Assembly: GCA_041906505.1 (NCBI GenBank) | Contig: JAYRJB010000008.1 | Coordinates: forward strand, 72,053 to 136,052 | From: Candidatus Saccharimonadales bacterium | GTDB taxonomy: Bacteria > Patescibacteriota > Saccharimonadia > Saccharimonadales > 2-12-FULL-41-12 | Length of the DNA stretch: 64,000 nucleotides | Direction: 5' to 3' | Shown: piece by piece, positions 1-45,696 of the stretch | Position numbering within the stretch: the stretch's first letter is position 1 | Layout: every line of letters begins with the position of its first letter | The notes under the pieces: model-generated | Database searches by the model: none | What the model saw: the letters and a program-made list of their open reading frames with translations, nothing else | Told to the model about the DNA's origin: nothing | Position numbers and translations under genes: made by a program

Positions 1-154
1 TCAAGAGCACGCAGTCGTGCTCGTGCGAGGCGGTCGTGTGAAAGATCTTCCAGGTGTTCGATATCACATTGTGAGGGGCAGCCTTGACTTACAGGGTGTT
101 TCGGATCGAAAGCAAGGCCGATCCAAGTATGGCGCGAAGAAGGAAGGCAAGTAA
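1..154 (+). CDS. rpsL: 30S ribosomal protein S12, C-terminal 50 codons (5' end lies outside the window)
   Basis: Frame 2 reads [50 protein letters not shown], then TAA at 152-154. This is a canonical S12 C-terminus, and rpsG starts 3 nt later. Confidence 0.9.
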
Positions 155-157
155 GCT

Positions 158-637
158 ATGCCCAGGAAAGTTACCAAAACCCTTGTTCGCGATATTCAGC
201 CCGACCGAGTGTACAACAGCGTGCAAGTTCAGCGACTTATTAATCGAGTTATGCTAAATGGCAAGAAACAGCTTGCTGAGCGGTTGGTATACAATGGGAT
301 GCAAAAGGCTGCAAACAAGCTAAAAGTCGATAATCCGCTTGATGTTTTTGAGCAAGCACTCGGAAATGTAAAGCCTCATCTCGAGACGCGATCGCGCCGA
401 GTTGGCGGTGCGAATTACCAGATTCCCTTCGAAGTTAAAGGTCAACGCCAAAACCATCTCACGATGATGTGGTTCGTGGCGGCTGCACGAGCCAGGAAAG
501 GCATGAGCATGGAAGACCGAATCGCACTCGAATTAGTCGATGCCTACAATAACACGGGTACAGCTGTGAAGAAGCGTGAGGATACCCATAAGATGGCAGA
601 GGCAAACCGAGCCTTTGCGCACTTTGCGAGGTATTAA
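158..637 (+). CDS. rpsG: 30S ribosomal protein S7
   Basis: 159 aa. MPRKV... N-terminus and ...HKMAEANRAFAHFARY C-terminus are typical of S7. str-operon position. Confidence 0.97.
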   Translation: MPRKVTKTLVRDIQPDRVYNSVQVQRLINRVMLNGKKQLAERLVYNGMQKAANKLKVDNPLDVFEQALGNVKPHLETRSRRVGGANYQIPFEVKGQRQNHLTMMWFVAAARARKGMSMEDRIALELVDAYNNTGTAVKKREDTHKMAEANRAFAHFARY

Positions 638-640
638 ATC

Positions 641-919
641 ATGTGGTGTGAAAAGGGTTTGAGAGATTGCGCTTACCTAGACGGTATCAACGAGATGAAC
701 AGCAATGCATCACTCGCGCAAATTGTTGGTACAGAGGATCGAGACTTTGCTGATAGCGCAGAGCTCCTATCTGGGGCTACCCAAGAAGCAATAGAATACT
801 CCTTGAAAACGTGCATTCCCGATCAGTGTGGAGCTGTCGGAATGGCATTATTTGGTATGATCGAAAACACCGTAAGAATCAGAATGCTAGAAGATAAATT
901 GGAGAGAAAAATTGGCTAA
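641..919 (+). CDS. hypothetical 92-aa acidic protein with four Cys
   Basis: ATG lies 3 nt after the rpsG stop with GAGG 9 nt upstream. The ORF fills the whole rpsG-fusA gap and overlaps the fusA TTG start by 8 nt. No family recognised. Confidence 0.35.
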
Positions 920-2993
920 GACACCATTAGAAAAACTAAGAAACATTGGAATAATTGCACATATTGATGCGGGTAAAACCACCACAACCGAAGGCATTCT
1001 TTTTCGAACAGGCCTAAAGCATAAAATCGGTGCCGTACATGAAGGCGAAACTACCACCGACTGGATGGAGCAAGAGCGCGAACGCGGTATTACCATCACC
1101 TCTGCTGCCGTAACCTGCTATTGGAAAGATCATCAGATTAACATTATTGATACCCCTGGCCATATTGACTTTACTGTAGAGGTCGAACGCTCCCTACGTG
1201 TTCTAGATGGGGCTGTGACTGTGTTTGATGGCAAAATGGGTGTAGAGAGCCAGTCAGAGACTGTCTGGCGCCAAGCCGATAAATACGGCGTACCGCGAAT
1301 TTGCTTTATCAACAAAATAAACCAAACCGGCGGGGATTTTTATAAGTCTTTGGATAGTATCCATGCGCGACTCAATAAGCGTGCGTTTCCAATTCATCTT
1401 CCGATCGGTTTTGAGCAGACCGTGAACGGCGTTGTTGACTTGATCGACATGAAGGCTTACACCTATAAAGACTTCAAGGATAAGGAACTCGTTGTTGGCG
1501 AAATACCAGCCGACATGCTTGACGAAGCCAAGAAATATCGGAGTTTGCTTATCGAGAATGCTGTTGCCGAGGACGAAAAAATTCTAGAGAAGTACTTTGA
1601 AGTAGGCGAGGATGGCCTAAGTGTTGATGAGATCAAACAAGCAATTCGAACCGCTGTGCTTTCTGGTAAGTTTTTTGCGGTAACTGGCGGTGATGGCCGT
1701 GGGGTTATTGTCGAAAAAGTCCTCGACGCAGTTGTCGACTTTTTGCCGAGTCCTACTGATCGAGGATCAACCTGGGGCGAGCATACAAAAACTGGGGATG
1801 AGATAGAACGGAAGCCAGATGCTGCCCAACCATTTGCTGGCCTAGCTTTCAAGATTGCCACCGATCCATTTGTCGGAAAGCTCTGTTTTGTTCGTGTTTA
1901 CTCTGGAAAACTTCAAGCCGGCAGCTATATTTTGAACAGTTCTACTGGCGAGAAAGAACGCATCGGACGTATTGTTCGAATGCAAGCTGATAAACGCGAG
2001 GATGTGAACGAAATAACTGCCGGCGACATTGCGGCCGTTGTCGGATTAAAGAGCACTACTACTGGGAACAGTCTGTGTGATCCAAATAATCCAATTGTGC
2101 TGGAGAGCATCTCTTTCCCAGATCCACCGGTGAGTATTGCTATCGAGCCAAAAACCAAAGCCGACCAAGAAAAGATGAGTCTAGCGTTGGGTCGCCTTGC
2201 AGAAGAAGACCCTACTTTTCGCATAAAGGTTGACCACGAAACTGGCCAAACCATTATTAGCGGCATGGGCGAACTTCATCTGGAAATCATTGTTGATCGA
2301 ATGAAGCGAGAATTTAATGTCGAAGCCAACATTGGCCAGCCTCAAGTTGCGTATCGCGAAACAATTCGCAAAGACGCTGTTGAATCCGAAGGCAAGTTTG
2401 TCAAACAAAGCGGCGGTCGGGGCCAATATGGTCACGTCTGGATTCGTCTGAGCCAAAACGAGCAAGGCAAAGGTTTCGAGTTCATCAACTCGATCAAGGG
2501 TGGTGCAGTTCCAAGTGAGTACATCAAACCAGTAGAAGAAGGCATAAAAGAAGCTATGAATAATGGGGTTCTGGCTGGTTATCCAGTGGTCGATGTGAAG
2601 GCTGAGCTGTATGATGGCAGCTACCACGATGTGGACTCCAGCGAAATGGCCTTCAAGATCGCAGGATCCATGGCACTTCAAAGTGGTGTAAAAAATGCAA
2701 ACCCAGTATTACTTGAGCCGATCATGAAGGTTGTTGCAGTCACACCCGAAGACTTTATGGGTGACGTGATAGGTGACCTTAACAGCAAACGTGGACGTAT
2801 CGAGTCAATGGATGATCTTGCCAACGGCATTAAGCAGATAACTGCCTATGTACCACTTGGTGAAATGTTTGGCTATACGACCAATCTTAGGAGCATGAGT
2901 CAAGGTCGTGCGAGCTCTAGTATGGAGCTTGACCACTATGCTGACGTGCCAAGTCATGTGACTGAGGCAATTGTCGCTAAAAGCGCAAAATAA
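912..2993 (+). CDS. fusA: elongation factor G
   Basis: 693 aa. Motifs [12 protein letters not shown] and [11 protein letters not shown] start with GGAGAG upstream. str-operon order. Confidence 0.98.
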
Positions 2994-3248
2994 ATGAGCT
3001 GGCAGGACCTCGTATACGGTGTTGGTAATGTCCTATTCGCCGTTGCGCTCATCCCCTCAATTAAGAGCTCTGACAAGCCACACATCAGAACCAGTATTCT
3101 TAATGCATTTGTTTTAGTATTCTTTGTGATTGCAGGTATTAGCTTAGAATTGTATTTCACCGCAGTAGTGACGGCTGTGGTTGTGGGTCTGTGGGCACTT
3201 TTAGCACTGCAAAAATATAACGACTCGAAAGGCAGGCGACATTCATGA
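2994..3248 (+). CDS. small 3-TM membrane protein (SemiSWEET/PQ-loop-like topology, tentative)
   Basis: ATG directly abuts the fusA TAA. 84 aa with three hydrophobic spans. IPSI sits where PQ-loop proteins carry PQ. Confidence 0.5.
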   Translation: MSWQDLVYGVGNVLFAVALIPSIKSSDKPHIRTSILNAFVLVFFVIAGISLELYFTAVVTAVVVGLWALLALQKYNDSKGRRHS

Positions 3249-3448
3249 CAGAGGACAAGCAAACTGAGCTACTAAAGCTGGCGAATCGTCATGCGCGAGA
3301 AGTTGATCTATTTGACCAAGAAGCAGTAGAAAAATCTGTGCTTGAAGCAACAGAGTTGCGCAGCAGGCCTGTGTCTGAGGAAGGTATGCCCATCAGATTA
3401 ATTAAAGCAGTTGGGCAGCATATAGTTCGCAAGAACGAACAAGAATAA
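3245..3448 (+). CDS. hypothetical 67-aa acidic helical protein
   Basis: ATGA overlap with the preceding ORF suggests translational coupling. No family recognised. Confidence 0.4.
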   Translation: MTEDKQTELLKLANRHAREVDLFDQEAVEKSVLEATELRSRPVSEEGMPIRLIKAVGQHIVRKNEQE

Positions 3449-3489
3449 TCATAGTTTTGGTCGCATAGTTAGCCCAACCGTAACAGGGG

Positions 3490-3518
3490 TTTACAAACCT
3501 ATTCCGATTAGATACGAT
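3490..3518 (+). promoter_or_regulatory. candidate sigma70-type promoter for tuf
   Basis: TTTACA (3490-3495), 17-nt spacer, TACGAT (3513-3518). AAGGAG RBS precedes the tuf ATG. Confidence 0.4.
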
Positions 3519-3602
3519 ATATCGGTAACATGAGTGTTTCGCTAGCTATGTCTATGCCCTCATAAATACAACTTTAGATAATTAACTATGTAAGGAGTTA
3601 GA

Positions 3603-4787
3603 ATGGCCGATACCTTTGATCGCAGCAAGCCACACGTAAACGTTGGAACGATGGGTCATGTTGACCACGGGAAGACAAGCTTGACTGCAGCAATCACAAT
3701 GACGCTTGCAAAGCGTCTCCCAAGCGACGTAAATAAGCCGATCGCTTATGACCAAATTGATAACGCGCCGGAAGAAAAACAGCGCGGGATTACGATCGCG
3801 ACCTCACACCAAGAGTATGAGTCCGAGAAGCGGCACTACGCCCATGTCGACATGCCCGGGCACGCCGACTACGTAAAAAACATGATTACCGGTGCGGCCC
3901 AGATTGATGGCGCAGTATTGGTTGTCTCAGCGGCAGATGGTCCAATGCCTCAAACACGCGAGCACGTGTTGCTTGCAAAACAAGTTGGCGTTCCTAGCAT
4001 CTTAGTTTTTATGAACAAGATGGATCTTGCTGATCCCGAGTTGGTAGAGCTTGTCGAAATGGACATCCGCGAGCTGCTTGCGAAGTATGACTTCGACGAG
4101 AACGCGCCAATTATTAAAGGCTCAGCTACCAAAGCGATTGAAGGCGACGAGGCAAATATGGATGCCATTATGGAGCTTGTGAAGGCAATGGATGACTACA
4201 TTCCAGAGCCAAAGCGTGAACTTGATAAACCGTTTCTTATGCCAGTCGAGGATGTATTTTCTATCAAAGGTCGAGGAACCGTCGCGACTGGTCGTATCGA
4301 AACCGGTATTGTAAAAGTCAACGACGAAGTAGAGATTGTTGGTATTCGTGACACCCAAAAGTCAGTGGTTACCGGTGTTGAAATGTTCAAGAAGCTACTT
4401 GATCAAGGTCAAGCCGGTGATAACGTCGGAGTGCTCCTAAGAGGCATCGAAAGAGACGACATCGAGCGCGGACAAGTACTGGCTAAGCCTGGTTCAATCA
4501 CTCCTCATACCGAATTTGACTCTGAAGTTTATATTTTGACCAAAGAAGAAGGTGGACGACACACGCCATTCTTTAAGGGTTACAAGCCCCAGTTTTACTT
4601 CAGAACCACTGACGTGACTGGCGAGGTAGAATTGCCAGCCGACAAAGAAATGGTAATGCCTGGCGATACCGTTACTTTTAAGGTCAAGTTGCTGGCTCCA
4701 ATTGCTATGGAGCAAGGGCTTCGATTTGCGATCCGCGAAGGCGGCCGAACGGTCGGCGCGGGTGTGGTGACAAAAATCGTTAAGTAG
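3603..4787 (+). CDS. tuf: elongation factor Tu
   Basis: 394 aa. Motifs [15 protein letters not shown] and [17 protein letters not shown]. Confidence 0.98.
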
Positions 4788-4807
4788 CACCAAAACAAGT
4801 GTGAATA

Positions 4808-4833
4808 AAAGCCCCAGAAAACGGGGCTTTTAT
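4808..4833 (+). terminator. Rho-independent terminator after tuf
   Basis: AAAGCCCC / GGGGCTTT 8-bp stem, 7-nt loop, then a T-run. Confidence 0.75.
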
Positions 4834-4835
4834 AA

Positions 4836-4864
4836 TTGCAAGAATTAACTAAATGCAGTATAAT
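4836..4864 (+). promoter_or_regulatory. near-consensus promoter
   Basis: TTGCAA (4836-4841), 17-nt spacer, TATAAT (4859-4864). The ATG at 4876 lies only 11 nt after the -10 box. Confidence 0.65.
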
Positions 4865-4875
4865 AATCATTAATT

Positions 4876-5190
4876 ATGAATACTGCAGAGTCTTGGCCAG
4901 AAAGTACCACATCGCATTTCCAAATAGTGGAATCGACCCTAGAGGATTACAAAGACGCGCTTCTCGGCGAGAAGGTGGTGCATTGGTGGGGTGATGAACG
5001 AGACAATGTGTACCTAACCCAAACGCGACGATCGGGTGAGACTCTCGTCTTGAATGATCTTGATGAGATAGGCCTCGGGCCCGTACGTGCCTTTATGGCT
5101 GAAATTGGTGTTGGGTACAAAGGTTTAATGACCCAAGAAATGCTATCGCAAAGAATTGATGACCTTACTCGCGGAAACGCAGAGGCTTGA
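4876..5190 (+). CDS. hypothetical 104-aa acidic protein
   Basis: ORF directly downstream of its own terminator and promoter pair. No Shine-Dalgarno, so probably near-leaderless. No family recognised. Confidence 0.5.
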   Translation: MNTAESWPESTTSHFQIVESTLEDYKDALLGEKVVHWWGDERDNVYLTQTRRSGETLVLNDLDEIGLGPVRAFMAEIGVGYKGLMTQEMLSQRIDDLTRGNAEA

Positions 5191-5345
5191 GAAGTTTCCT
5201 AATATTTTTTGAAATACTTAAAACTAGACTATCAACAAATAATTTGTTAATGTAACCATACTTTATTGCATGCTGACTAAAAGTCATTTCCTCTAGCGCG
5301 AGATGATGTTACAGCGAATTCTAATGAAAGGAACAACACCTTATA

Positions 5346-5789
5346 ATGGCTGAATCAACCAAGAAACCCAAAACATCTCAAAAAGAGAAAAAGGCAAAGC
5401 CGACTGTTATAGCCGCAGCTAAGGAATCAAAGCCCACAACAAAACCTACTGTCACACCAAGTTCGAAGCCCGTTGCTGCCGACGGAAAGCAACGTATTCG
5501 AATTCGCTTGAAAGCTTATGACCATAAAGTTATTGATCAATCTGCTAAGCAAATTGTTGATACTGCGCTCCGCACCGGTGCCACTGTAGCGGGGCCGGTG
5601 CCACTCCCGACTCGCAAAAGCACGTTTACCGTTGTGAAGAGTCCGCATGTATACAAAAAGGGTCGTGAACAGTTTGAAATGCGAGTTCACAAGCGCCTTA
5701 TCGATGTGCTTGAGCCGACTCCGAAAACAATTGACTCCCTCATGAACCTTTCTCTTCCTGCTGGCTGCGACGCCGAAATAAAAATGTAA
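5346..5789 (+). CDS. rpsJ: 30S ribosomal protein S10 with a ~45-aa Lys/Pro/Thr-rich N-terminal extension
   Basis: The core [25 protein letters not shown]...PLPTRK...[23 protein letters not shown] is canonical S10. The preceding 45 aa are low-complexity. Confidence 0.95.
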
Positions 5790-5807
5790 CCCTCAGGCGT
5801 ATCAATT

Positions 5808-6089
5808 ATGAGAACCATAAGACTACAAGAGTCTGCCTCGATGTTTCTACTTAGCATTGAGCCGCCACTCGATGACGAAGAACTTGGCCTCTTACCGCTT
5901 GCACAAGTGGCAGATAACGATGTCGACGAAAGTGCGAATTCGCGTATCTATCGCTGGAGCGACGAGACAATAGTCGCATACCCAAGCGTTGTTTTTGATA
6001 ACGACCCGGCTAAGCTTGCCCAGCACGCAGAGGAAGTTGCAGAAGCGTTGGGGCAAACCAGCCTTCAAGGCGTCCTGCAAAAAGTGTAG
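5808..6089 (+). CDS. hypothetical 93-aa acidic protein
   Basis: ORF 18 nt after the rpsJ stop. No clear RBS. No family recognised. Confidence 0.35.
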   Translation: MRTIRLQESASMFLLSIEPPLDDEELGLLPLAQVADNDVDESANSRIYRWSDETIVAYPSVVFDNDPAKLAQHAEEVAEALGQTSLQGVLQKV

Positions 6090-6107
6090 AACAACTCCTA
6101 ATGATTG

Positions 6108-6136
6108 TTGACCAAAGCAGTAATCTGTGATAAAAT
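6108..6136 (+). promoter_or_regulatory. candidate internal promoter with extended -10
   Basis: TTGACC (6108-6113), 17-nt spacer, TGaTAAAAT (-10 at 6131-6136). Confidence 0.55.
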
Positions 6137-6170
6137 ATGTAATTACTAAAAGGAGATGTAAGTTAGAGTC

Positions 6171-6770
6171 ATGGAAATAAGCCCAAATGTAGAGCATTAT
6201 GCTGATGCGAGTCCCAACAGAGTTGGGGGAGTGATTGACAATCTTAAGCAAAGACTTGCAGTTGGCGCTGCGGTGATTGCGGCTTCGTTTGCTGCGGCCC
6301 CTGGTGCTGAGAATTTTGATAATGAGGCCCAGGCAAGCCAAGTACCGGCAACCGAGGTAAATCCGATAAGCGAGTCGGGAGTTAGTTTTTCTGATTGCGC
6401 AAACGCTGCGCTTGCGCACACGGCTAGTTTTCGAACACGAGTAACCACAAACCGAACAAACGGCCGGATCACCAATGCGGTCGGGAGATTTACTGGACAG
6501 ATTGAAGTACCGTCTATTGTCGAGTGTGATGGGGTGCGAACTGTTCGTGTATCGGGGATAGCAAATCGACACCTGGTGACACCAGTCTTGACTCTGGTTG
6601 GCAGAAACAAAGACAGGGAATCAATTTCTGGCCACTTCTCAGCAACGCAACAATGTAAAAAAGTCGGCCGTATCTTTTCATCGATGTTGATAAGAACAAC
6701 CTACAGTGATGATGGGCGCACGGTAACTTCTACAGATACCGTTCGAGCGGATCGTCCGAACAAGTGCTAA
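6171..6770 (+). CDS. hypothetical secreted or membrane-anchored 199-aa protein with four Cys
   Basis: Hydrophobic segment LAVGAAVIAASFAAAPGA near the N-terminus. The rest is Thr/Arg/Val-rich and probably beta-rich. The long antisense ORF reads as junk-like. Confidence 0.5.
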   Translation: MEISPNVEHYADASPNRVGGVIDNLKQRLAVGAAVIAASFAAAPGAENFDNEAQASQVPATEVNPISESGVSFSDCANAALAHTASFRTRVTTNRTNGRITNAVGRFTGQIEVPSIVECDGVRTVRVSGIANRHLVTPVLTLVGRNKDRESISGHFSATQQCKKVGRIFSSMLIRTTYSDDGRTVTSTDTVRADRPNKC

Positions 6771-6860
6771 CAGGCAAAGCTACATTGTAAACTCTGGTAG
6801 TAGTGAGGCCCGGTTGTGTGGTGTACTTTTTCATCATATGCTTTAATACTGCTTATAGTT

Positions 6861-7130
6861 ATGGCAAAGAAAAAAACACAAACATCTTCTTCTGAAACCG
6901 ACGGAGCTTATTTTTTAAAAATTGTACTGTATATGATTGTGGGGAGCGCCTGGATTCGAGTGACCACCAAGGCCGGGGCAGTATATCCTTTGCCTTTTGG
7001 CGCTGTCGTTGCCTTGCTATTTGCTAGCCATGAACATTTTCAGCTTGATCGAAAAATCGAGTATGCGATTATTCTTGTGAGTATGTTCATCTCGTTTTGG
7101 CTGCCCATTGGGCTGTATATAAATTTGTAG
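6861..7130 (+). CDS. small membrane protein (~89 aa, 2-3 TM)
   Basis: MAKKKTQTSS... followed by hydrophobic spans. The ATG at 6861 is preferred over the GTG at 6816. Confidence 0.45.
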   Translation: MAKKKTQTSSSETDGAYFLKIVLYMIVGSAWIRVTTKAGAVYPLPFGAVVALLFASHEHFQLDRKIEYAIILVSMFISFWLPIGLYINL

Positions 7131-7143
7131 AATATACAACGTA

Positions 7144-7173
7144 TTGACAGAGGTAACACAAACGTGTTAATCT
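7144..7173 (+). promoter_or_regulatory. candidate promoter for rplC and downstream genes
   Basis: TTGACA (7144-7149), 18-nt spacer, TGtTAATCT (-10 at 7168-7173). About 135 nt of leader follows. Confidence 0.45.
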
Positions 7174-7312
7174 GTTATCTAGTAGTTAAAATTCTTGTAC
7201 TTGGTGTATTGCACAGGTCTACGAGTTACAGTGGTAGAAACCGGCAATTACCAAGCGTTTTTATGTAACGCTAAATACGCGAACAAGAATAGTAAAGAAA
7301 GGCTAGAAGAGC

Positions 7313-7927
7313 TTGAAAGCGTTTGTGACCCGAAAAGTTGGAATGACAAGCACCATCGATAGTGAAGGTGTGGTGCAGGCTATTACCTTGCTTTCGGCAT
7401 CGGACAATGTGGTGACGCAAGTAAAGTCAACTGAAACCGACGGCTATAATGCGCTACAACTCGGTTTTGAGGAAGAAAAGCGGCAACTAAAGCCACAGCT
7501 AGGTCACCTCAAGCCCGCGAAAACAAACGCTAAAATTATGCGTGAGATTCGCCTCGATGACGACACTACCGAACTAAAGGTCGGCGACCAACTTAGCGCC
7601 GATCTTTTTAGTGTGGGGGACATCGTACATGCGACGGGAACCAGCAAAGGGAAGGGATGGGCCGGCACCATAAAGCGACATAATTTTCATCGACAGCGCA
7701 AAACACATGGTGGAAAGGGCAATACTCGAAAAGCTGGATCTATCGGCTCAATGTACCCGCAGAGGATATTTAAGGGTAAAAAAATGGCCGGTCAGATGGG
7801 TAGCGAGCAGGTGACCATTAAAAATCTAACTATTGGCCTGGTTGACACTGAGCACAGTCTCATCGGTGTGATTGGTGCAGTACCAGGTCCACGCAAAAGT
7901 ATTGTTGTGTTGCGAGGAGCGAAATAA
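7313..7927 (+). CDS. rplC: 50S ribosomal protein L3
   Basis: 204 aa, TTG start, MKAFVTRKVGMTS... typical of L3. Conserved operon order. Confidence 0.96.
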   Translation: MKAFVTRKVGMTSTIDSEGVVQAITLLSASDNVVTQVKSTETDGYNALQLGFEEEKRQLKPQLGHLKPAKTNAKIMREIRLDDDTTELKVGDQLSADLFSVGDIVHATGTSKGKGWAGTIKRHNFHRQRKTHGGKGNTRKAGSIGSMYPQRIFKGKKMAGQMGSEQVTIKNLTIGLVDTEHSLIGVIGAVPGPRKSIVVLRGAK

Positions 7928-8565
7928 TGGCCACCCCTACCTTTACAAAATCTGGAGCGAAGTCGACTAGTTCCGTGAAGCTTGACAAGAATGTGTTTGA
8001 AGTTGAGGTTGCGAACCACCGCTTGCTCAAGGACGCCTATCATGCATACCTTGATAATGGGCGGCACAATCTTGCGGTCACAAAAACACGTGGTCTGGTT
8101 CGTGGTGGCGGGAAAAAACCCTGGAAGCAAAAAGGCACAGGCCGGGCTCGATTCGGAAGCTCAAGAGTTCCCATTTGGAGAGGCGGAGGAATTACTTTTG
8201 GTCCTACGGGAAACGAGAACTACTCTAAGAAGTTAAATCAAAAAGCCAAACGTACAGCTATACGACAGGCACTGACACTGGCGGCGCAGGCCAATAAGCT
8301 GTGCATTATTGAGGCTTTTGAAGTCCAGGATGGCAAGGTTAAGTCTGCCCTAGAATTGCTGAACAAAATTAATGCCAAGGGTCGCGTATTAATCGTTGTC
8401 GAGAACAAATCCGAAGAGATGAAGCGAGCAACAAACAACCTCGAAGCAACTATACTTGTTCAAGCGAAGTATCTCAACACATTTGACATACTCAACGCCG
8501 ATACTATCGTGGTGACAAAAAATTCGCTCAACATCATTTCTGATTGGCTTGGAGGTGAAAAATAA
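7927..8565 (+). CDS. rplD: 50S ribosomal protein L4
   Basis: 212 aa. Motif GGGKKPWKQKGTGRAR. ATG overlaps the rplC stop. Confidence 0.96.
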   Translation: MATPTFTKSGAKSTSSVKLDKNVFEVEVANHRLLKDAYHAYLDNGRHNLAVTKTRGLVRGGGKKPWKQKGTGRARFGSSRVPIWRGGGITFGPTGNENYSKKLNQKAKRTAIRQALTLAAQANKLCIIEAFEVQDGKVKSALELLNKINAKGRVLIVVENKSEEMKRATNNLEATILVQAKYLNTFDILNADTIVVTKNSLNIISDWLGGEK

Positions 8566-27854: not shown

Positions 27855-27940
27855 TGGTGCAGGGTGTAGGATTCGAACCTACGAAGGCATAAGCCATCAG
27901 ATTTACAGTCTGACGTGTTTGACCGCTTCACTAACCCTGC
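27855..27940 (-). tRNA. tRNA-Tyr (GTA), class II with long variable arm, CCA encoded
   Basis: Hand-folded: GCAGGGT TA GTG-AAGCGGTCAAA-CAC G TCAGA CTGTAAA TCTGA TGGCTTATGCCTTC GTAGG TTCGAAT CCTAC ACCCTGC A CCA. Confidence 0.9.
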
Positions 27941-27955
27941 AAAATGTACTTGGCT

Positions 27956-28031
27956 TGGAGCCGACGGCCGGATTCGAACCGGCGACCCGCTGTTTACAAA
28001 ACAGCCGCTCTAGCCACTGAGCTACGTCGGC
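27956..28031 (-). tRNA. tRNA-Thr (TGT), CCA encoded
   Basis: Hand-folded: GCCGACG TA GCTC AGTGGCTA GAGC G GCTGT TTTGTAA ACAGC GGGTC GCCGG TTCGAAT CCGGC CGTCGGC T CCA. Confidence 0.9.
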
Positions 28032-28043
28032 ATAGACCCAGGA

Positions 28044-28073
28044 ATTTTAACAGATTAAACCATCTAATAGCAA
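28044..28073 (-). promoter_or_regulatory. candidate promoter for the minus-strand tRNA cluster
   Basis: Minus strand: TTGCTA (28073-28068), 18-nt spacer, TAAAAT (28049-28044), about 13 nt before the tRNA-Thr 5' end. Confidence 0.4.
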
Positions 28074-28120
28074 GAAGGCGTGGTAGGGTAGTTTTTGCAC
28101 AAGATTTGCTTAGGTATGTT

Positions 28121-28129
28121 TGCTATAAT
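28121..28129 (+). promoter_or_regulatory. candidate extended -10 promoter for tRNA-Thr(GGT) and rpmG
   Basis: TGcTATAAT, with the hexamer at 28124-28129, 22 nt upstream of the tRNA. No good -35 box. Confidence 0.4.
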
Positions 28130-28151
28130 TGATCCTATTCGTTCGTCTCGT

Positions 28152-28226
<75 letters not shown>

Positions 28227-28264
28227 AGTTTACATATAGCTTACAATCTGTTAGAGTAATACAA

Positions 28265-28471
28265 ATGGCGACAAAGAGTAACAAAAGAAAATTGGTTGGT
28301 CTTGTTTCTGAAGAAACGGGGCATAGGACCTATTATACGAAAAAGAACCTTCAGAACACCCCGGATAAACTAGAGCTCAGAAAGTATGACCCAATTGCCC
28401 GTCGGCATGTCTTATATGTTGAAACCAAGAAAAATCTTGGCCGAAACGAAGTAAAAGCCCGCAAAAAGTAA
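28265..28471 (+). CDS. rpmG: 50S ribosomal protein L33, Cys-less form
   Basis: 68 aa. ...[34 protein letters not shown] matches the L33 core and contains no Cys. Confidence 0.88.
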
Positions 28472-28480
28472 ATTTAATTA

Positions 28481-30442
28481 CTATTCGAGCTTTAGGTCTA
28501 GGCTTTCTGTGTCACCTTGTCTGTGTTGTAGGTCAAGCAAAGTGTTTATGTATTCGGCATGACTCCACACAAGTGGTGTGACTGACTTTGGTGTGCCGTC
28601 TAGGGGATTCACTTGCTCTGGAAACATTCCGCTAGGAAGCGCTCGCTCTTCCACCCAGTGGATGAGCTTCTTGGCTGAATCAAACTGACCGGCTCGAATG
28701 AAGTATTGAGCTACCCACAGAGTGGCAATTATCCAGGGGTTAGAAACGTTGTCGGAAACGCGGAAATAGTTATCGCCTTCGTACCTGGGCCACCCCCCCG
28801 ACTCGAGCGAGCTACGGAGACTGCTTATTGTTTGCTCTATGGCATGAGACGGATTTACATCTTTCGGCGAGAAGCCGAATGTCATAACTCCGTACATACT
28901 TGATATGTCGACAGTATTGTCAAAGTCGAGAGAATCAGTTTCTTGGTTGTATAAAAACCCTTTCCGAAAAGTTTGATTGTCAGGATTAACAAATACTGGA
29001 AAGCGATCAACTAGTTTATCGCACGCAGCAGTCCACTTTTCTTTTTGTTCAGACGTTCCAAATTTTTCTGCCAGCTCACTCGCAACCTGTAACCCCGCAA
29101 ATACGGTTGCGGTTGTATACGTCGTGGTAAGAAATTTTTCCTCCCACAAATCATAACTTGCATGAGGCAAATCTGTGCCAGGGTCAATAAAGCTGCTGAG
29201 GAAATCAGCGCATTTGACTACAAGACTTTCGTAGAGTTCTTTTACAAAATCTGCATCCTTACTGTAATCGTAATATTCGCCTAACGCGATAAGTAGGGTC
29301 GCAGTTTCGTCTTCTTGTATGGCCAGTTCTCGGCGCTTTCCATGGACTAAAGGGTGCCAGGTGCTTCCTATGGCGCGGTCTGGCTGGTATTTATGCATTA
29401 AGTAGCCATCTTTTGTTACAAGATCTCGGCAAAACTTGATAAAGGCTTTTGGCTCTTCTGTGTAGCCCAAACGAATTAACGGCCAAATTGCGTAGGCGCC
29501 GTCTCTTGGCCATACATAGCTATAATAGTCTCTTCCGTAGTTATAAATACTACTGTCGCACGAGGCGATAACACCTCCGCGACTGTCGATGTGGGCTTTT
29601 ATGGTCATGAGAGACTTGCGGGCAAGGAATCGCTCTTTTCCTGGTAGTACCGAGAGTCGAGCATCACTTATGGCTAACCACTCTTGCCAATATTGTTCAT
29701 GAATTTTTTGACGCTTATCGAGGCCCTTTCTCATAACTTCGTGAGTGTTGTCGCAGGCATATTGAGAATCGTCCGCAACAACCCAATAGTCTGTCTGGGC
29801 TTCGTCACCTGGCTGTATTTGATAGCAAAAACGAATAACTGAGTCTACGCCGGCGTGTTCGACTGGGTGGTTTGATAATTCTCCGTCCTCAGCATCAACA
29901 TAGGTTCCTGCTTTGCCCTCAATCCCATAGTTTCCAACGGCGTATTGGTCAAATTCCTGGCTGCCGCTACGTCCGCCAATGAGTAAGCAAACTCGACCCT
30001 TGTAATCCAGGATATAGTTTCCATCTGGCTCATATAATGCGGTGTCGCCGCGTCCTGCACTAGAGATTTGAAAGACCTGGTGCATGAACAAACGTATCTC
30101 TTGCAGTGAATCAGTCAAGTTTTTTACATAGATTCTTCTGCACCAAGTGTCATATTCGTGATCGACAAAATCAATGGTGCGCAGCGAGACCCCCAAGACC
30201 TTGTTTGTCATAATGCAGGTTGCGGTAAGTGCGTCCGATGAGAGGTCGACACTGCAATCCCAGGCATCATCGTCCGTCCAGCTAAATGCGCCACCAATCC
30301 AAATACCAATTTTGTGGTGTAGACTCCGAGCGGTGGTAAGATTTTCGAGCCCAACATATGGAAAGTAGAAGTCATGCACATGACCACGCTCGTTGAGTCC
30401 GACTGCTAGGCGGCCATTGCTTAAGATAGCCGATCTTGCCAC
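28481..30442 (-). CDS. glycoside hydrolase family 15 (glucoamylase-like)
   Basis: 653 aa. WPRDGAY motif and an (alpha/alpha)6-type C-terminal region. GTG start overlaps the GH57 stop by 1 nt. Confidence 0.8.
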   Translation of the reverse strand: MARSAILSNGRLAVGLNERGHVHDFYFPYVGLENLTTARSLHHKIGIWIGGAFSWTDDDAWDCSVDLSSDALTATCIMTNKVLGVSLRTIDFVDHEYDTWCRRIYVKNLTDSLQEIRLFMHQVFQISSAGRGDTALYEPDGNYILDYKGRVCLLIGGRSGSQEFDQYAVGNYGIEGKAGTYVDAEDGELSNHPVEHAGVDSVIRFCYQIQPGDEAQTDYWVVADDSQYACDNTHEVMRKGLDKRQKIHEQYWQEWLAISDARLSVLPGKERFLARKSLMTIKAHIDSRGGVIASCDSSIYNYGRDYYSYVWPRDGAYAIWPLIRLGYTEEPKAFIKFCRDLVTKDGYLMHKYQPDRAIGSTWHPLVHGKRRELAIQEDETATLLIALGEYYDYSKDADFVKELYESLVVKCADFLSSFIDPGTDLPHASYDLWEEKFLTTTYTTATVFAGLQVASELAEKFGTSEQKEKWTAACDKLVDRFPVFVNPDNQTFRKGFLYNQETDSLDFDNTVDISSMYGVMTFGFSPKDVNPSHAIEQTISSLRSSLESGGWPRYEGDNYFRVSDNVSNPWIIATLWVAQYFIRAGQFDSAKKLIHWVEERALPSGMFPEQVNPLDGTPKSVTPLVWSHAEYINTLLDLQHRQGDTESLDLKLE

Positions 30443-31644
30443 TAGATTGCCCCTGCACGTAGCCGCACATCGTGCCAGGCATTCATGTAGTAAATAAACG
30501 CGTCATAGGGATTTTCGTAAGGACTGAAGTAGGCGTGAATATCTCCGTCGTTAAACCATTTTGTGCACATGTAATAAAAATGATCTGAGGTTTGGAGCCG
30601 ACGCCAATCTTCGATGAGGTTGTGGTCGCCAGAATGCATAACCGCATCCTTGATTTCGTATATTGCACGTAGCGCTTCTTTCTGCATGTCATTTCCTGTC
30701 CATGCGGAAAGGTCTCTCTCGGTGTCTGCCCAGGTCACTATATTTGGCATGTCAACTTGATCAACCGCCTCATAGCTTTCAGCTGCCTCAGTGACAGTCA
30801 TAAAAGTGTTTTCGTGGGTTGACAACCATTCTTTGGGGAGATGCTCCAAGAAGTCAAAAATACCGGATTCTTGCCATTGGTGTTCCCCAAATGTTTCATA
30901 ATCCATGAAAAGATTAAAGATCGAGGCTTCTCCAGACGCATGAAGCCAATGGGCAAACTTGCTGGCAGTCAGCGGCCATTCAGCCCAGTGCCTATCGCCA
31001 AAACGAAACGCAACATCATCGCTCAGTCTGTAGTTTTTAAGTAGCAGCTTTATGTCGCCCTCGACATAGGTTGGGCGATAGACAAAATTTGGACTTCTCC
31101 ATCCCAATATTGGATCCCACCCTTCCGCCAGAATGGCTTTATAGCCCGCTTTGTCTGCCCACCACGCTAGATCATTGTTGTAGGCAAGCTCGGTGTTTCT
31201 GAAACACTTAGGGGTTTGGCCGAAAACCTCCGCGATTAATTGCTTGTGGCGATTAACTTGATGTTCAAATTCTTCCTTGTCATAAAAAAATGCCAGGCTG
31301 TGGTGATATGTTTCGCCCACAATTTCAACTTTACCTGTCTCGCAAAGGGCCTGAAACGACTGGAGGGCGGCAGGCGACCAGCGCTGCATCTGCTCGATCG
31401 CTGTTCCAGAGATAGATAGACTAAGCTTAAACGCTGGGTATTCACGGAGAAGTCGCAGAAGCCGAGCATTGGTTTGCAGATAGGACTTTTCGGTGACCTT
31501 GTGCAGAATACGCTGGTTGCTCGTTCGATGATCGTATGCACCGTCAAAGTAATTATGATCGTGTCCTACAGAGTAAACAGTATAGTCCCGCACTCGAAAC
31601 GGTTGGTGGACATGAAGATATAGTACAATCGCTTTTTTGCTCAT
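30442..31644 (-). CDS. glycoside hydrolase family 57 (alpha-amylase / 4-alpha-glucanotransferase type)
   Basis: Start set at MSKKAIVLYLHVHQPFRV (ATG at 31644), in an ATGA overlap with the upstream glycosyltransferase. HQP motif. Confidence 0.8.
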   Translation of the reverse strand: MSKKAIVLYLHVHQPFRVRDYTVYSVGHDHNYFDGAYDHRTSNQRILHKVTEKSYLQTNARLLRLLREYPAFKLSLSISGTAIEQMQRWSPAALQSFQALCETGKVEIVGETYHHSLAFFYDKEEFEHQVNRHKQLIAEVFGQTPKCFRNTELAYNNDLAWWADKAGYKAILAEGWDPILGWRSPNFVYRPTYVEGDIKLLLKNYRLSDDVAFRFGDRHWAEWPLTASKFAHWLHASGEASIFNLFMDYETFGEHQWQESGIFDFLEHLPKEWLSTHENTFMTVTEAAESYEAVDQVDMPNIVTWADTERDLSAWTGNDMQKEALRAIYEIKDAVMHSGDHNLIEDWRRLQTSDHFYYMCTKWFNDGDIHAYFSPYENPYDAFIYYMNAWHDVRLRAGAI

Positions 31645-32834
31645 AGTGCAAGCTGTGTTTTCTGTTTGTAAATATCCATAAATATGTGTGCGGCCTTGTC
31701 CCAAGAGTGCTTTGACAGCTCCCCGCGAGCATTATTAATCAGCGCCGACGAAAGGCTTTGGTTTCTGATAACGGCCACAATTTGATCGGTCATTTTGTCT
31801 ATGTCCCAAAAGTCAGCTTTCAAACAATTGCCAAGGACTTCTGAGACACCTGATTGCTTGCTGATTAGCGAGGGAGTGTCATACACAATTGCCTCAAGGG
31901 GTGTGAGTCCGAACGGCTCAGAGACAGAAGGCATGACAAAAAGATCAGCAATGCCAAACGCATCCCTCCATTGTTTTCCGCGCTGAAATCCCACAAAAAG
32001 AACGTTTTTAGAAATTCCGAGCTTTGCACTGAGCTCAATGAGTTCATGATGCTGGTCACCCGCGCCAACCAATAAGAAGATGGTTTTTGGCTCAAATTCC
32101 AAGACCTGCTGGGCCGTAAAGAGCAGATTGCTTAGTCCTTTTTGTACGGTATGGCGCCCCACGTTTGAGACAATTGTGTAGCCATTTGATTTTAGTCTCG
32201 AAAGATATCGATAGGCGTTGTCATTGTCCAGCGCGGGCATAGAATATGCATCAATGCTGTTATGGGCAACATGAATCTTTTCAGCAGAAATCCCATACTC
32301 TTGTACAATTTTTCGTTTTGTGAACTCGCTCACAGCGACAATTTGATCCGCCAGGTGCAGGCCCATCTCTTCAATCTCGTGGACATGCGGGTGACCACTC
32401 TTGTTGCCGGCGCGATCGGACTCTATAGAGTGGATATGTACTATCAATGGTCTGCCACTTAACTCCTTGGCGCGCAAACCTGCCCGAAAAGTGAGCCAGT
32501 CATGAGCGTGGATTACATCATACTCGTCTAATTGTTCAATACGCGCAACGCGATCTGCATAAATGTCTTGGAGTTCAAATATTGAACTTCCTTCGTGTGT
32601 GCCAGCAGGAACAACGCGATCCACCGAATCGTAGATGCCAAGAAATGTGCGGGGCGATGCGATCTTGGCAGAAATCACTCGCATATGTGCACATTCATGA
32701 GTTGCAGTATATGGAACCACGAAAGTAATATCTGCACCTTTTTTTGCGAGCGTCTTGGTGAGCTGGTAGCATGCTACTCCAAGGCCACCACTGTTATGTG
32801 GAGGCAATTCCCACCCGAGCATAAGAACTTTCAT
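31641..32834 (-). CDS. glycogen-synthase-like GT-B glycosyltransferase (GT4/GT5)
   Basis: 397 aa. MKVLMLGWELPPHNSGGLGVACYQL N-terminus and EPFGLTPLEA motif. Confidence 0.75.
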   Translation of the reverse strand: MKVLMLGWELPPHNSGGLGVACYQLTKTLAKKGADITFVVPYTATHECAHMRVISAKIASPRTFLGIYDSVDRVVPAGTHEGSSIFELQDIYADRVARIEQLDEYDVIHAHDWLTFRAGLRAKELSGRPLIVHIHSIESDRAGNKSGHPHVHEIEEMGLHLADQIVAVSEFTKRKIVQEYGISAEKIHVAHNSIDAYSMPALDNDNAYRYLSRLKSNGYTIVSNVGRHTVQKGLSNLLFTAQQVLEFEPKTIFLLVGAGDQHHELIELSAKLGISKNVLFVGFQRGKQWRDAFGIADLFVMPSVSEPFGLTPLEAIVYDTPSLISKQSGVSEVLGNCLKADFWDIDKMTDQIVAVIRNQSLSSALINNARGELSKHSWDKAAHIFMDIYKQKTQLAL

Positions 32835-32893
32835 CGAAAGAGCCTTTTCCTTTTTTTGTCTTGCTTTTTAAGTTAAACCACCTAGATACCATT

Positions 32894-32923
32894 ATTATAA
32901 ACCCCGCAACGGTGTAAGCGCAA
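32894..32923 (-). promoter_or_regulatory. candidate promoter of the glucan operon, overlapped by a palindrome
   Basis: Minus strand: TTGCGC (32923-32918), 18-nt spacer, TATAAT (32899-32894). The inverted repeat AAGCGC-AA-GCGCTT at 32916-32929 covers the -35 box. Confidence 0.45.
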
Positions 32924-32985
32924 GCGCTTTACGGATGTCAATTGCGTATATTTTTTCGACAAATTTTCTGAAAAAGCGTATGAGC

Positions 32986-33312
32986 CTATTTGCGCCTGGC
33001 GACTCTGTACTGCCTTACGGCAAGTTCGGCAAGTAGGCCTTGAGGACTTGCGTCGCGAACCGCTAAAATTGCATCTTGCGTAGTGGTATCGAGCACCTCT
33101 AAGACGTTAAAGTCGATCTCCGAAGCAACAGTTAGAATTGCCAGACTTTGCGCGGCTTCGTTTCCGGCAACTTCTGCGTCGTGCAATCTGTAGTTGTACC
33201 ATGCATCTCTTTGTTGGGCGTGGCCATAGTTGTCAGCCGGATTTGCAGCAAGACCAGGAAAGTCAAACAATTCACCTCTGATCAACTCATGAATTGGTCG
33301 CGTATTGCTCAT
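32986..33312 (-). CDS. hypothetical 108-aa protein
   Basis: The ATG at 33312 has AAGGA 8 nt upstream. The longer TTG start at 33372 is less likely. No family recognised. Confidence 0.4.
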   Translation of the reverse strand: MSNTRPIHELIRGELFDFPGLAANPADNYGHAQQRDAWYNYRLHDAEVAGNEAAQSLAILTVASEIDFNVLEVLDTTTQDAILAVRDASPQGLLAELAVRQYRVARRK

Positions 33313-33403
33313 TCTAGGGTCCTTGATTAATGCAGTGGTTTTAAGTCTAGGCGCGAAACTTTTACCATGCAAGCATAAACATCATCTTTCGCAAGTCTTA
33401 ATC

Positions 33404-33814
33404 TCACTTACGATGACGGGTTTCTCGGAGTATTTTTTCGTAAGAGTTTTTGTCGCCGTATGGCGCAAATTTTTCTTGGTACGCAAAGGCTGGGTTGTCT
33501 GGTTGATTATTATGCTTTACACCACACCAGTAATATTCAGTCCGATGGGCAATTTCGGTGAAGTACATGAACACGCCGTTCGCATAGGCGCAGTACGCGC
33601 AATTAAGCTTATCGATTGGATTAATGTAGCTAAGCTTTCGTCTATCGAGGTTGACATAGTCCCGCAAACGGACTTTTTCAATTCCGTAAATTGGGAATGC
33701 GATAACTTGGTATAACGCCATTAGCGCATGCACAAAAAGTGTCGGTATAAACGGCAGCCAAATAAAGGGGACCGTGATAAGGTGGAGTGCATTTCGTTTA
33801 TTAAAAACTTTCAT
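33404..33814 (-). CDS. hypothetical membrane protein with CAYCAYANG motif
   Basis: 136 aa. N-terminal TM hairpin followed by a Cys/aromatic-rich soluble part. Confidence 0.5.
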   Translation of the reverse strand: MKVFNKRNALHLITVPFIWLPFIPTLFVHALMALYQVIAFPIYGIEKVRLRDYVNLDRRKLSYINPIDKLNCAYCAYANGVFMYFTEIAHRTEYYWCGVKHNNQPDNPAFAYQEKFAPYGDKNSYEKILRETRHRK

Positions 33815-33825
33815 AGCTGTATGCC

Positions 33826-33900
33826 TGGCAGGGGCACGTGGAATCGAACCACGATCTAGGGTTTTGGAGACCCTTATACTAGCCGTTGTACTATGCCCCT
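33826..33900 (-). tRNA. tRNA-Trp (CCA), CCA end encoded
   Basis: Hand-folded: AGGGGCA TA GTAC AACGGCTA GTAT A AGGGT CTCCAAA ACCCT AGAT CGTGG TTCGATT CCACG TGCCCCT G CCA. Confidence 0.88.
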
Positions 33901-45492: not shown

Positions 45493-45521
45493 TTGCTCTG
45501 ATTGCCATATTCTGCTAAAAT
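45493..45521 (+). promoter_or_regulatory. candidate promoter of the rplJL operon
   Basis: TTGCTC (45493-45498), 17-nt spacer, TAAAAT (45516-45521). Confidence 0.55.
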
Positions 45522-45612
45522 ATGTCGTTAGTTACCGAAGACAGTAGCGTCTCGAGACAATTGAGATTAAGAATGCTACCGAGGAGTAAATATTTAGCAG
45601 CACGCTTATATT

Positions 45613-45641
45613 AGTCTTTGGTTTCATCCAGAGGCTTTTTT
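45613..45641 (+). terminator. intrinsic terminator within the rplJ leader (attenuator candidate)
   Basis: AGTCTTTGG-tttcat-CCAGAGGCT is a 9-bp stem (two G-U pairs) followed by TTTTTT. It lies 55 nt before the rplJ ATG. Confidence 0.5.
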
Positions 45642-45696
45642 ATGGTCGATACATCGCTTCTGGAATCAATGTAACACATGTAATGAAGGTCAAAAT

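Follow-up and report, generated by a model that had tools for sequence, protein, structure and literature searches.

Few operon junctions in bacteria are as conserved as the one that joins rpsJ to rplC. Why, then, are these two genes 1523 nucleotides (nt) apart (5790-7312) in a 64,000-nt stretch of DNA from a Candidatus Saccharimonadales bacterium (contig JAYRJB010000008.1; the whole stretch is called the window here), with three co-directional open reading frames (ORFs) and two promoter-like sites inside the gap? An earlier note on this DNA had described a broken S10 operon. The gap is real, but it is not a local event, since the same split is found in all 73 Saccharibacteria loci that were compared. 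Our preferred reading, to which we assign a probability of roughly 0.7, is that the S10 operon falls into two units with independent promoters, that rplC is placed behind an attenuator-like leader, and that the junction between the units acts as a cargo slot. The following features, all on the + strand, carry the argument:

5346-5789, + strand: rpsJ, encoding ribosomal protein S10 (147 amino acids (aa); Pfam PF00338 Ribosomal_S10, E=4e-35, residues 52-146)
7126-7133, + strand: upstream block TGTAGAAT, which includes the ORF3 stop codon TAG (7128-7130) and may be a second -10 element
7144-7173, + strand: predicted rplC operon promoter (-35 TTGACA 7144-7149, 18-nt spacer, TG 7165-7166, -10 TAATCT 7168-7173)
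7196-7271, + strand: rplC 5' leader (hairpin 7200-7255, then a U-run 7258-7262)
7313-7927, + strand: rplC (TTG start; Pfam PF00297 Ribosomal_L3, E=9e-12)

The comparison set was made up of the 80 best genomic matches to the S10 protein of the window, nearly all of them labelled as metagenome-assembled genomes of Saccharibacteria or Saccharimonadales. Both S10 and L3 were found by tblastn at 73 loci, the window itself counted. In none of these was the rpsJ-rplC junction closed, and the interval ranged from 177 to 5395 nt with a median of 1330 nt. Because the gap is never small in 73 loci, the split is a trait of the sampled phylum and its standard architecture rather than a peculiarity of the window genome; only the content of the interval is lineage-specific. 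ORF maps of the 73 loci revealed between zero and about seven unrelated cargo genes, which differ from locus to locus. Recurrent cargo families included NUDIX hydrolases, a YtxH-like protein, a HAD hydrolase, adenosine deaminase, a LysM-CHAP wall hydrolase, a beta-lactamase-fold protein, a glycoside hydrolase and a CxxCxxCC protein, and unknown proteins were present as well. The cargo ORFs of at least 120 aa were mostly on the + strand (72, versus 17 on the - strand). Four loci had cargo-free intervals of 177 to 198 nt (L068, L008, L010 and L078; loci are referred to by L numbers), and all four retained the rplC promoter and leader.

The interval does not resemble a mobile element or genomic island, which would be recognized by mobility genes, flanking repeats, a tRNA target or a deviant composition. 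No integrase or transposase was present among the interval families that were scanned, and no direct or inverted repeats flank the interval beyond chance 12- to 20-mers. The GC content of the interval (0.41 to 0.53) matches that of its neighbours, and the tRNAs of the window are located at 27858-33900, with none in the interval. The open junction would best be described as a permissive slot for mostly co-directional genes with promoters of their own.

Non-coding DNA before rplC usually spans about 160 to 250 nt, and its invariant part is the final ~180 nt. Alignment of this region showed an upstream block tGTAGAATttgCAACA, followed by TTGACA, an 18-nt spacer ending in TGn, and TA(A/C)TCT; a long hairpin begins 16 to 35 nt past the -10 element and is followed by CAUUUUUAUG. 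The pattern TTGAC[A/T]-N17/18-TAnnnT was present in all 73 loci, with the TG in 72 and an 18-nt spacer in 69, compared with 1 of 78 control windows taken from the 450 nt upstream of rpsJ. A GTAGAAT-like block was found within 32 nt upstream of the -35 element in 56 of the 73 loci, in the TGTAnAAT form that also occurs at the rpsJ -10 region. The generic promoter scan missed the site at 7144-7173, which was identified by its conservation. Because the scan as a whole did no better than shuffled sequence (7 sites versus 6.5 expected), conservation rather than the scan is our evidence for promoters. Judged by their sequences, the rplC promoter and the ORF2 promoter described below both qualify as candidate sigma-70-type extended -10 promoters (hexamers 17±1 nt apart, TG one base before the -10), and the conservation of the former in all 73 loci is in line with the earlier suggestion that a second promoter could re-initiate transcription into rplC.

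The structured leaders before rplC and rpsJ had no place in the earlier note, and the rplC leader is the most conserved element of the junction. Its hairpin consists of P1 (CUUGGUG/UACCAAG), P2, GG/CC, P3 (UCUAC/GUAGA) and a conserved core, GGUAGAAACC. The RNAalifold consensus contained 16 pairs, 13 of which show compensatory changes. Median values for the hairpin are 57 nt in length and -18.3 kcal/mol in folding free energy (dG). In 72 of 73 loci, 5 or more of the 9 nt that follow the stem are U, and the columns of this adjoining U-run are among the best conserved. A covariance model of this RNA (R1) gave 73 matches in 1.07 Mb, a single one at each locus, and every match was on the rplC strand and upstream of rplC. 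In the R1 alignment 91.7% of the cells were paired, and covariation reached 0.444, versus at most 0.095 in slid controls, with none of 500 shuffles as high. The distance from the leader to the rplC start codon is 19 to 196 nt, mostly within about 100 nt, and no second conserved promoter was found between the two. The region thus has the anatomy of a terminator or attenuator, that is, a stable hairpin and, 0 to 2 nt behind it, a U-rich tract between a promoter and the first gene.

Model R1 also matched five further loci in the L081-L088 set. One of these, L087 (JGI contig, 1.35 Mb; positions 1-8463), carries an ORF3 homologue and the rplC leader with no rpsJ within 5 kb upstream. Its neighbours are threonine dehydratase and acetolactate synthase genes, which are unusual for the small genomes of this group.

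No Rfam 15 family was found for 7131-7320 at E values up to 10, and a permissive search of 4700-7500 gave no match for the interval or for either the rplC or the rpsJ leader. At gathering scores, the only Rfam 15 matches in the whole window were tRNAs and, elsewhere, one L10 leader (L10_leader RF00557 at 45517-45650, 56.5 bits versus a gathering score of 44). The organism therefore uses at least one classical ribosomal protein (r-protein) leader.

At the other side of the gap, two features mark rpsJ as a unit of its own:

5245-5253, + strand: predicted rpsJ promoter -10 region (TG 5245-5246, TAATGT 5248-5253)
5263-5324, + strand: rpsJ 5' leader RNA (GUGCUGACUAAAAGUC, a variable hairpin, GAUGUUACAGCAC)

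The -10 region aligns with a TGTAnAAT-type block upstream of rpsJ in an alignment of 46 loci and is a putative promoter on that basis. In Saccharibacteria genetics, the rpsJ promoter of N. lyticus TM7x has served as a strong promoter, successfully drove a resistance gene and worked in reporter cassettes (PMC10633639). The rpsJ leader showed 16 pairs, 9 with compensatory changes, in the RNAalifold consensus. Its covariance model (R2) matched in 62 of 86 sources, one match per locus and always directly upstream of rpsJ. The R2 alignment had 96.1% of cells paired and compensatory changes in 11 of 16 pairs, and its covariation of 0.497 compared with at most 0.127 in slid controls and was equalled by none of 500 shuffles. 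Both RNAs share two traits of r-protein leaders, namely a position in the 5' untranslated region (UTR) and a structure supported by covariation. Since S10 is the only r-protein that follows the rpsJ leader, it would be the obvious candidate ligand. The 5' strand of this leader, UGCUGACUAAAAG, may be boxA-like in a loose sense.

The S10 protein of the window has an N-terminal extension of about 50 aa that is rich in Lys, Pro and Thr (encoded in 5346-5500). The extension varies in length and sequence among relatives, and the Pfam domain starts at residue 52.

The gap can be followed gene by gene in the window, where the order is tuf (3603-4787), a 104-aa ORF (4876-5190), rpsJ, the three ORFs and rplC, with rplD, rplW, rplB, rpsS, rplV and rpsC downstream. 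The features between rpsJ and the rplC promoter are:

5808-6089, + strand: ORF1, small acidic protein (93 aa from ATG 5808, 82 aa from ATG 5841; isoelectric point (pI) 4.1)
6108-6136, + strand: putative ORF2 promoter, TTGACC-N17-TGaTAAAAT (10 of 12 consensus positions plus TG in the scan)
6171-6770, + strand: ORF2, clade-restricted protein (199 aa; hydrophobic N-terminal segment; four invariant Cys)
6839-6847, + strand: predicted ORF3 extended -10 element (TG 6839-6840, TTTAAT 6842-6847; block conserved in close relatives)
6861-7130, + strand: ORF3, small membrane protein (89 aa; three predicted helices; motif HEHFQxDRKIEYA)

The three ORFs thus stand where the earlier note had placed them, and its descriptions of ORF1 as acidic, of ORF2 as a four-Cys protein and of a promoter-like site at 6108-6136 were all borne out. 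Its view of them as unrecognizable orphans stands in so far as none reaches a Pfam cut-off; it fails for ORF3, which has at least 3379 relatives, and ORF1 has suggestive remote ones. Selection and synteny were assessed with the close relatives L081, L083 and L084; synonymous divergence (dS) among the lineages is about 0.6 to 1.0 (~0.8). The earlier note had proposed a test for purifying selection, and the ratio of non-synonymous to synonymous divergence (dN/dS) indicates constraint on all three: 0.13 to 0.21 for ORF1, 0.09 to 0.42 for ORF2 and 0.02 to 0.04 for ORF3. For comparison, values were 0.03 to 0.06 for rpsJ, 0.03 to 0.07 for rplC, and 0.00 to 0.07 for S10, L3 and L4 overall. The contigs of the ORF2 homologues share the order rpsJ, an 81-aa ORF, a 196- to 199-aa ORF, an 81- to 89-aa ORF and rplC. 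Relatives with adjacent rpsJ and rplC genes and unconserved ORFs, which the earlier note had named as evidence for recent junk, were not what we found in this sample: the ORFs are syntenic and under purifying selection, and the four cargo-free relatives keep the promoter and the leader. No Pfam family scored above its cut-off for ORF1, ORF2, ORF3, orfA or the antisense ORF. The last of these, a 226-aa frame at 5892-6572, was rejected as a gene. It had been suspected of being a shadow frame, and none of the three relatives keeps it open: their longest uninterrupted stretches in that frame are 82, 85 and 76 aa, versus 242 in the window.

ORF1 begins 18 nt past the rpsJ stop codon. Because of this short spacing, and with no promoter-like block before it, ORF1 is probably co-transcribed with rpsJ. 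Its product is probably a small acidic protein of the cytoplasm. The ATG at 5808 is kept in the three relatives, and the first 11 codons contain only two differences, both at third positions; gene callers place the start in the relatives at the second ATG, equivalent to window position 5841. ORF1 is syntenic in L081, L083 and L084. It gave only 2 database hits. An ORF1 profile searched against a 606-sequence set returned small acidic proteins encoded right after rpsJ in L062 (E=0.014) and L046 (E=0.25), and a tandem paralogue reached 2.9e-6 after one iteration. These matches are suggestive of remote homology between ORF1 and the small acidic ORFs directly after rpsJ in L062, L046 and L027.

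An acidic ORF just past rpsJ was noted at about 14 loci (for example L005, L006, L013, L014, L038, L046, L047, L061 and L062). These ORFs encode 66 to 124 aa with a pI of 4.1 to 5.9 and start 2 to 20 nt past the stop codon. Only some of them are detectably related to one another or to ORF1.

ORF2 is the sole true orphan of the three. A word-indexed search of 5.8e9 proteins found only 3 homologues, at 86, 78 and 61% identity, and an exhaustive HMMER search of 1.84e9 representatives found no relative outside its own 50% cluster. Cys76, Cys119, Cys162 and Cys199 are invariant in all 3 homologues. The protein, restricted to one small clade, is under purifying selection and evolves fast. An Ala-rich hydrophobic segment at about residues 29 to 46 is preceded by K26/R28, and the sequence after these residues, LAVGAAVIAASFAAAPGA, is conserved in the homologues. 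A signal anchor is a plausible reading of this N-terminus, although the n-region is long at 28 aa and the Kyte-Doolittle value is below the peak cut-off of 1.6 that we used for membrane segments. The AlphaFold2 model, which was based on a 4-sequence alignment, contains a helix at residues 25 to 39 but is unusable at a predicted local distance difference test score (pLDDT) of 38. The promoter block 6104-6150 is near-perfectly conserved in four relatives, with a single substitution in L084, although at dS ~0.8 their synonymous sites are close to saturation. ORF2 is probably exported and probably has a promoter of its own.

A further observation on ORF2 comes from the pair L081 (4001-4600) and L083 (1464-2063). 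S10, ORF1, L3 and L4 are near-identical between the two (dS 0 to 0.12), while ORF2 has a dS of 0.57 and a dN of 0.24 with identical N-termini. From the sequences, this looks like a recombinational allele swap within a putatively exported protein.

ORF3 is a different case. Its family spans the phylum and comprises at least 3379 homologues, virtually all of which are listed as hypothetical proteins, and an ORF3 gene is found within the rpsJ-rplC interval of 45 of 73 loci, in 31 of which it is the last gene before the rplC leader. The AlphaFold2 model (pLDDT 80.9) has three predicted helices, with the conserved motif HEHFQIDRKIEYA between helices two and three. A Foldseek search of this model against the PDB gave no significant fold match (best E=0.27), and none of 42 ORF3 relatives scored above a Pfam family cut-off. 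Assignment to the Pfam family YfhO was rejected, as the match covers a fragment of an 835-position model with 18.7 bits versus a gathering cut-off of 28.5, and it recurs weakly in only 8 of the 42 family members.

Genes of the ORF3 family have no visible Shine-Dalgarno sequence. A TGnTAnnnT element near the start codon was found in 27 of the 45 homologues with a strict pattern, its first base mostly 13 to 18 nt upstream. Because this -10 motif is at a short and near-fixed distance from the ATG, it suggests a promoter that would give rise to a leaderless or near-leaderless mRNA. At L083 (2064-2624) the gene caller lists no ORF3, though the aligned DNA appears to preserve the frame; this is probably a missed small gene.

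The mechanism that we infer from this architecture has two units. The first would be rpsJ with its own -10-type promoter and structured 5' leader. The second would start at rplC, where the promoter would fire about 20 to 25 nt upstream of the irregular hairpin of about 57 nt. We propose r-protein-dependent attenuation here because a conserved hairpin and U-run follow a strong promoter and precede an r-protein operon. An r-protein encoded by the operon and present in excess would promote termination at the U-run by binding to the conserved upper hairpin, whereas without the bound protein RNA polymerase would read through into rplC. By analogy with E. coli, L4 would be a candidate ligand, though an unproven one. 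Since each unit could do without read-through from its neighbour, the stretch from the rpsJ stop codon to the rplC promoter would be free, and different lineages could have filled it with different genes.

Several observations weigh against this proposal. The sample of 80 best S10 matches represents Saccharibacteria near-exclusively rather than the wider Patescibacteria. The flanks of the hairpin appear to pair with each other across the U-run: cognate flank duplexes averaged -9.58 kcal/mol versus -8.35 kcal/mol for non-cognate ones, and none of 2000 permutations was as low. Such pairing fits the fold of a read-through transcript, and the U-run could then be a structural or binding element and not a terminator tail. 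An alternative anti-terminator structure was not identified. Because ORF3 is common, and adjoins the promoter in 31 of its 45 loci, it may have a functional link to the operon and not be neutral cargo. Finally, a search of E. coli ribosomal RNA (rRNA) and of a TM7-type rRNA operon revealed no rRNA mimic of the rplC leader. Scores of model R1 on E. coli rrnB and the TM7-type rRNA did not exceed 8.9 bits (E of at least 0.9), and pattern searches and local alignments compared with shuffles stayed at chance level, except for one weak 5S similarity.

The TM7-type operon used in this search (L093) was retrieved with a 16S probe sequence. The leader core UGCCAAUAACAGAGGUAGAAAC resembles the 5' part of its 5S rRNA (L093 13851-13871), with 11 of 300 shuffles scoring as high, uncorrected for 12 comparisons; this similarity is probably due to chance and is not relied on here. 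The genes for L5 and L18 are usually part of the r-protein cluster downstream. In L093 (3986-13960) the 16S and 23S genes are about 4.8 kb apart, and the 23S gene measures 3296 nt versus a 2925-position model, which suggests that it carries an insertion.

How well do other explanations account for the same data? One possibility is that the leader acts post-transcriptionally, as a translational operator or as a stem for mRNA stability or processing. The outer helix that seems to enclose the U-run would suit this, and many r-protein leaders control translation (PMC3616713). A distance to the rplC start codon that ranges from 19 to 196 nt fits poorly with direct occlusion of a ribosome-binding site, however, and it would not be expected that the U-run right after the stem is among the best conserved columns. 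We regard this explanation as unlikely.

The hairpin and U-run could also form an ordinary intrinsic terminator that insulates rplC from upstream transcription and is not a regulated leader. Its anatomy fits (a dG near -18 kcal/mol and 5 or more U in 72 of 73 loci), as does its position where the cargo ends, and ORF3 and rplC have no further terminator-like site between them. Yet in all 73 loci the hairpin lies 16 to 35 nt past the conserved -10 element. Because it is downstream of this element, transcripts from the promoter at 7144-7173 must cross it as well. The 16-nt core AACAGAGGUAGAAACC and the irregular multi-helix shape are moreover kept across dozens of species, with covarying stems. 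From its position and its conserved core we argue that insulation is not the sole role of the hairpin, and simple termination is in our view quite improbable as the whole account.

Even less credible is an independent small RNA gene of about 80 to 100 nt, made up of the promoter, the RNA and the U-run, that merely happens to lie beside rplC. A strong promoter of its own, a terminator-like 3' end and high conservation of sequence and structure would all be expected of such a gene. The element is nevertheless always on the rplC strand and 19 to 196 nt from the rplC start, no second conserved promoter precedes rplC, the flanks pair across the U-run as fits a longer transcript, and there is one copy per locus and none elsewhere in 1.07 Mb.

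A recent foreign or junk insertion (a mobile element or islet) that split a normal operon in this genome alone, for which the near-absence of homologues of ORF1 and ORF2 and the four related genomes with no genes in the interval might speak, is already contradicted and can be given hardly any weight, as the split is universal in 73 loci, the three genes are syntenic in four lineages at dS ~0.8 under purifying selection, GC resembles that of the neighbours with no repeats beyond chance and no integrase or transposase in the scanned families, and the rplC promoter and leader persist where there is no cargo.

The division into two promoted units with an open junction remains the reading that we prefer, and its architecture is solid. 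The data demonstrate the split, the varying cargo, the coding nature of the three ORFs, the conserved promoter sequences and the covarying RNAs, whereas promoter activity, attenuation, its protein ligand and the roles of the three proteins are inferred. A broader version of it would combine an S10 (NusE)-responsive rpsJ leader, an independently evolved r-protein-responsive attenuator before rplC and a junction that acts as a gene nursery, with both RNAs outside Rfam and the searched literature. We offer this combination tentatively and consider it doubtful as a whole. The archaeal S10 gene adjoins elongation-factor genes and not L3. If the combination were true, the layout would converge on the archaeal one, in which S10 accompanies EF-Tu/EF-1alpha and L3 heads the cluster, and lineage-specific surface and membrane genes would arise beside very strong promoters, with ORF2 and the ORF3 family as examples.

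The spacing between tuf and rpsJ is likewise variable among relatives, from ~74 to ~2730 nt. In the window this gap (4788-5345) holds the 104-aa ORF at 4876-5190, which is acidic (pI 4.4), and a TTGCAA-17-TATAAT site at 4836-4864. A 104-aa gene was called at the same position in L081, together with two extra genes.

R-protein leaders, attenuators and variable junctions between core genes are all known already. New here are three things: throughout the sampled phylum the operon boundary is shifted downstream by one gene from its usual place in bacteria, two RNA structures with good support stand outside Rfam 15 and the searched literature, and a large family of membrane proteins lacks annotation. 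Our literature search found no description of the rpsJ-rplC split, of either leader RNA or of the ORF3 family. Within the candidate phyla radiation, only Saccharibacteria are widely cultivated and by now amenable to genetics, and their gene regulation is barely known. The two leaders are strong candidates for cis-regulatory RNAs before essential, highly expressed genes. The promoter consensus from 73 species-level genomes should be useful for expression tools, for which an rpsJ promoter has already been used empirically. The ORF3 family adds a conserved small membrane protein, so far unannotated, that is encoded beside the ribosomal operon in most genomes.

Among the closest known systems is the S10 leader of E. 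coli, the best-studied attenuator of this anatomy, where L4 together with NusA stimulates termination and the leader is also a translational operator (PMC3616713). Both are structured 5' leaders of the L3-L4-L23-L2-S19-L22-S3 block, both have a hairpin and U-run downstream of a strong promoter, and both operons encode L4. In Saccharibacteria, however, the leader fronts rplC and rpsJ is outside the unit. The E. coli leader has five hairpins (HA-HE), whereas the rplC leader has one long irregular hairpin and possibly an outer helix. With its position upstream of rplC and no match in Rfam 15, the rplC leader does not belong to the E. coli-type S10 (L4) leaders, and the title of the paper on the latter presents this L4-interacting RNA as confined to Gammaproteobacteria (PMC3616713). 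A parallel in placement is the candidate L4 leader of Archaeoglobi, directly upstream of rplC-rplD-rplW-rplB (Eckert and Weinberg 2020, PMC7247131). That motif is rated uncertain ('?') by its authors (PMC7247131) and comes from another domain of life. We detected no relation to it in sequence or structure, as its Rfam model, if included in release 15, gave no match here. The L10 leader (RF00557) and other r-protein leaders are likewise covarying cis-regulatory structures of the 5' UTR. They differ in being curated, several with an experimental ligand, while the two RNAs described here are outside Rfam and show no detected rRNA mimicry. The junction itself is comparable to integration hot spots in that a fixed junction of core genes contains different genes in different lineages. 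Its cargo differs in that the genes are small and either of housekeeping type or unknown, with neither integrases nor repeats nor a base composition that would point to mobility, and the site lies inside what other bacteria keep as one operon.

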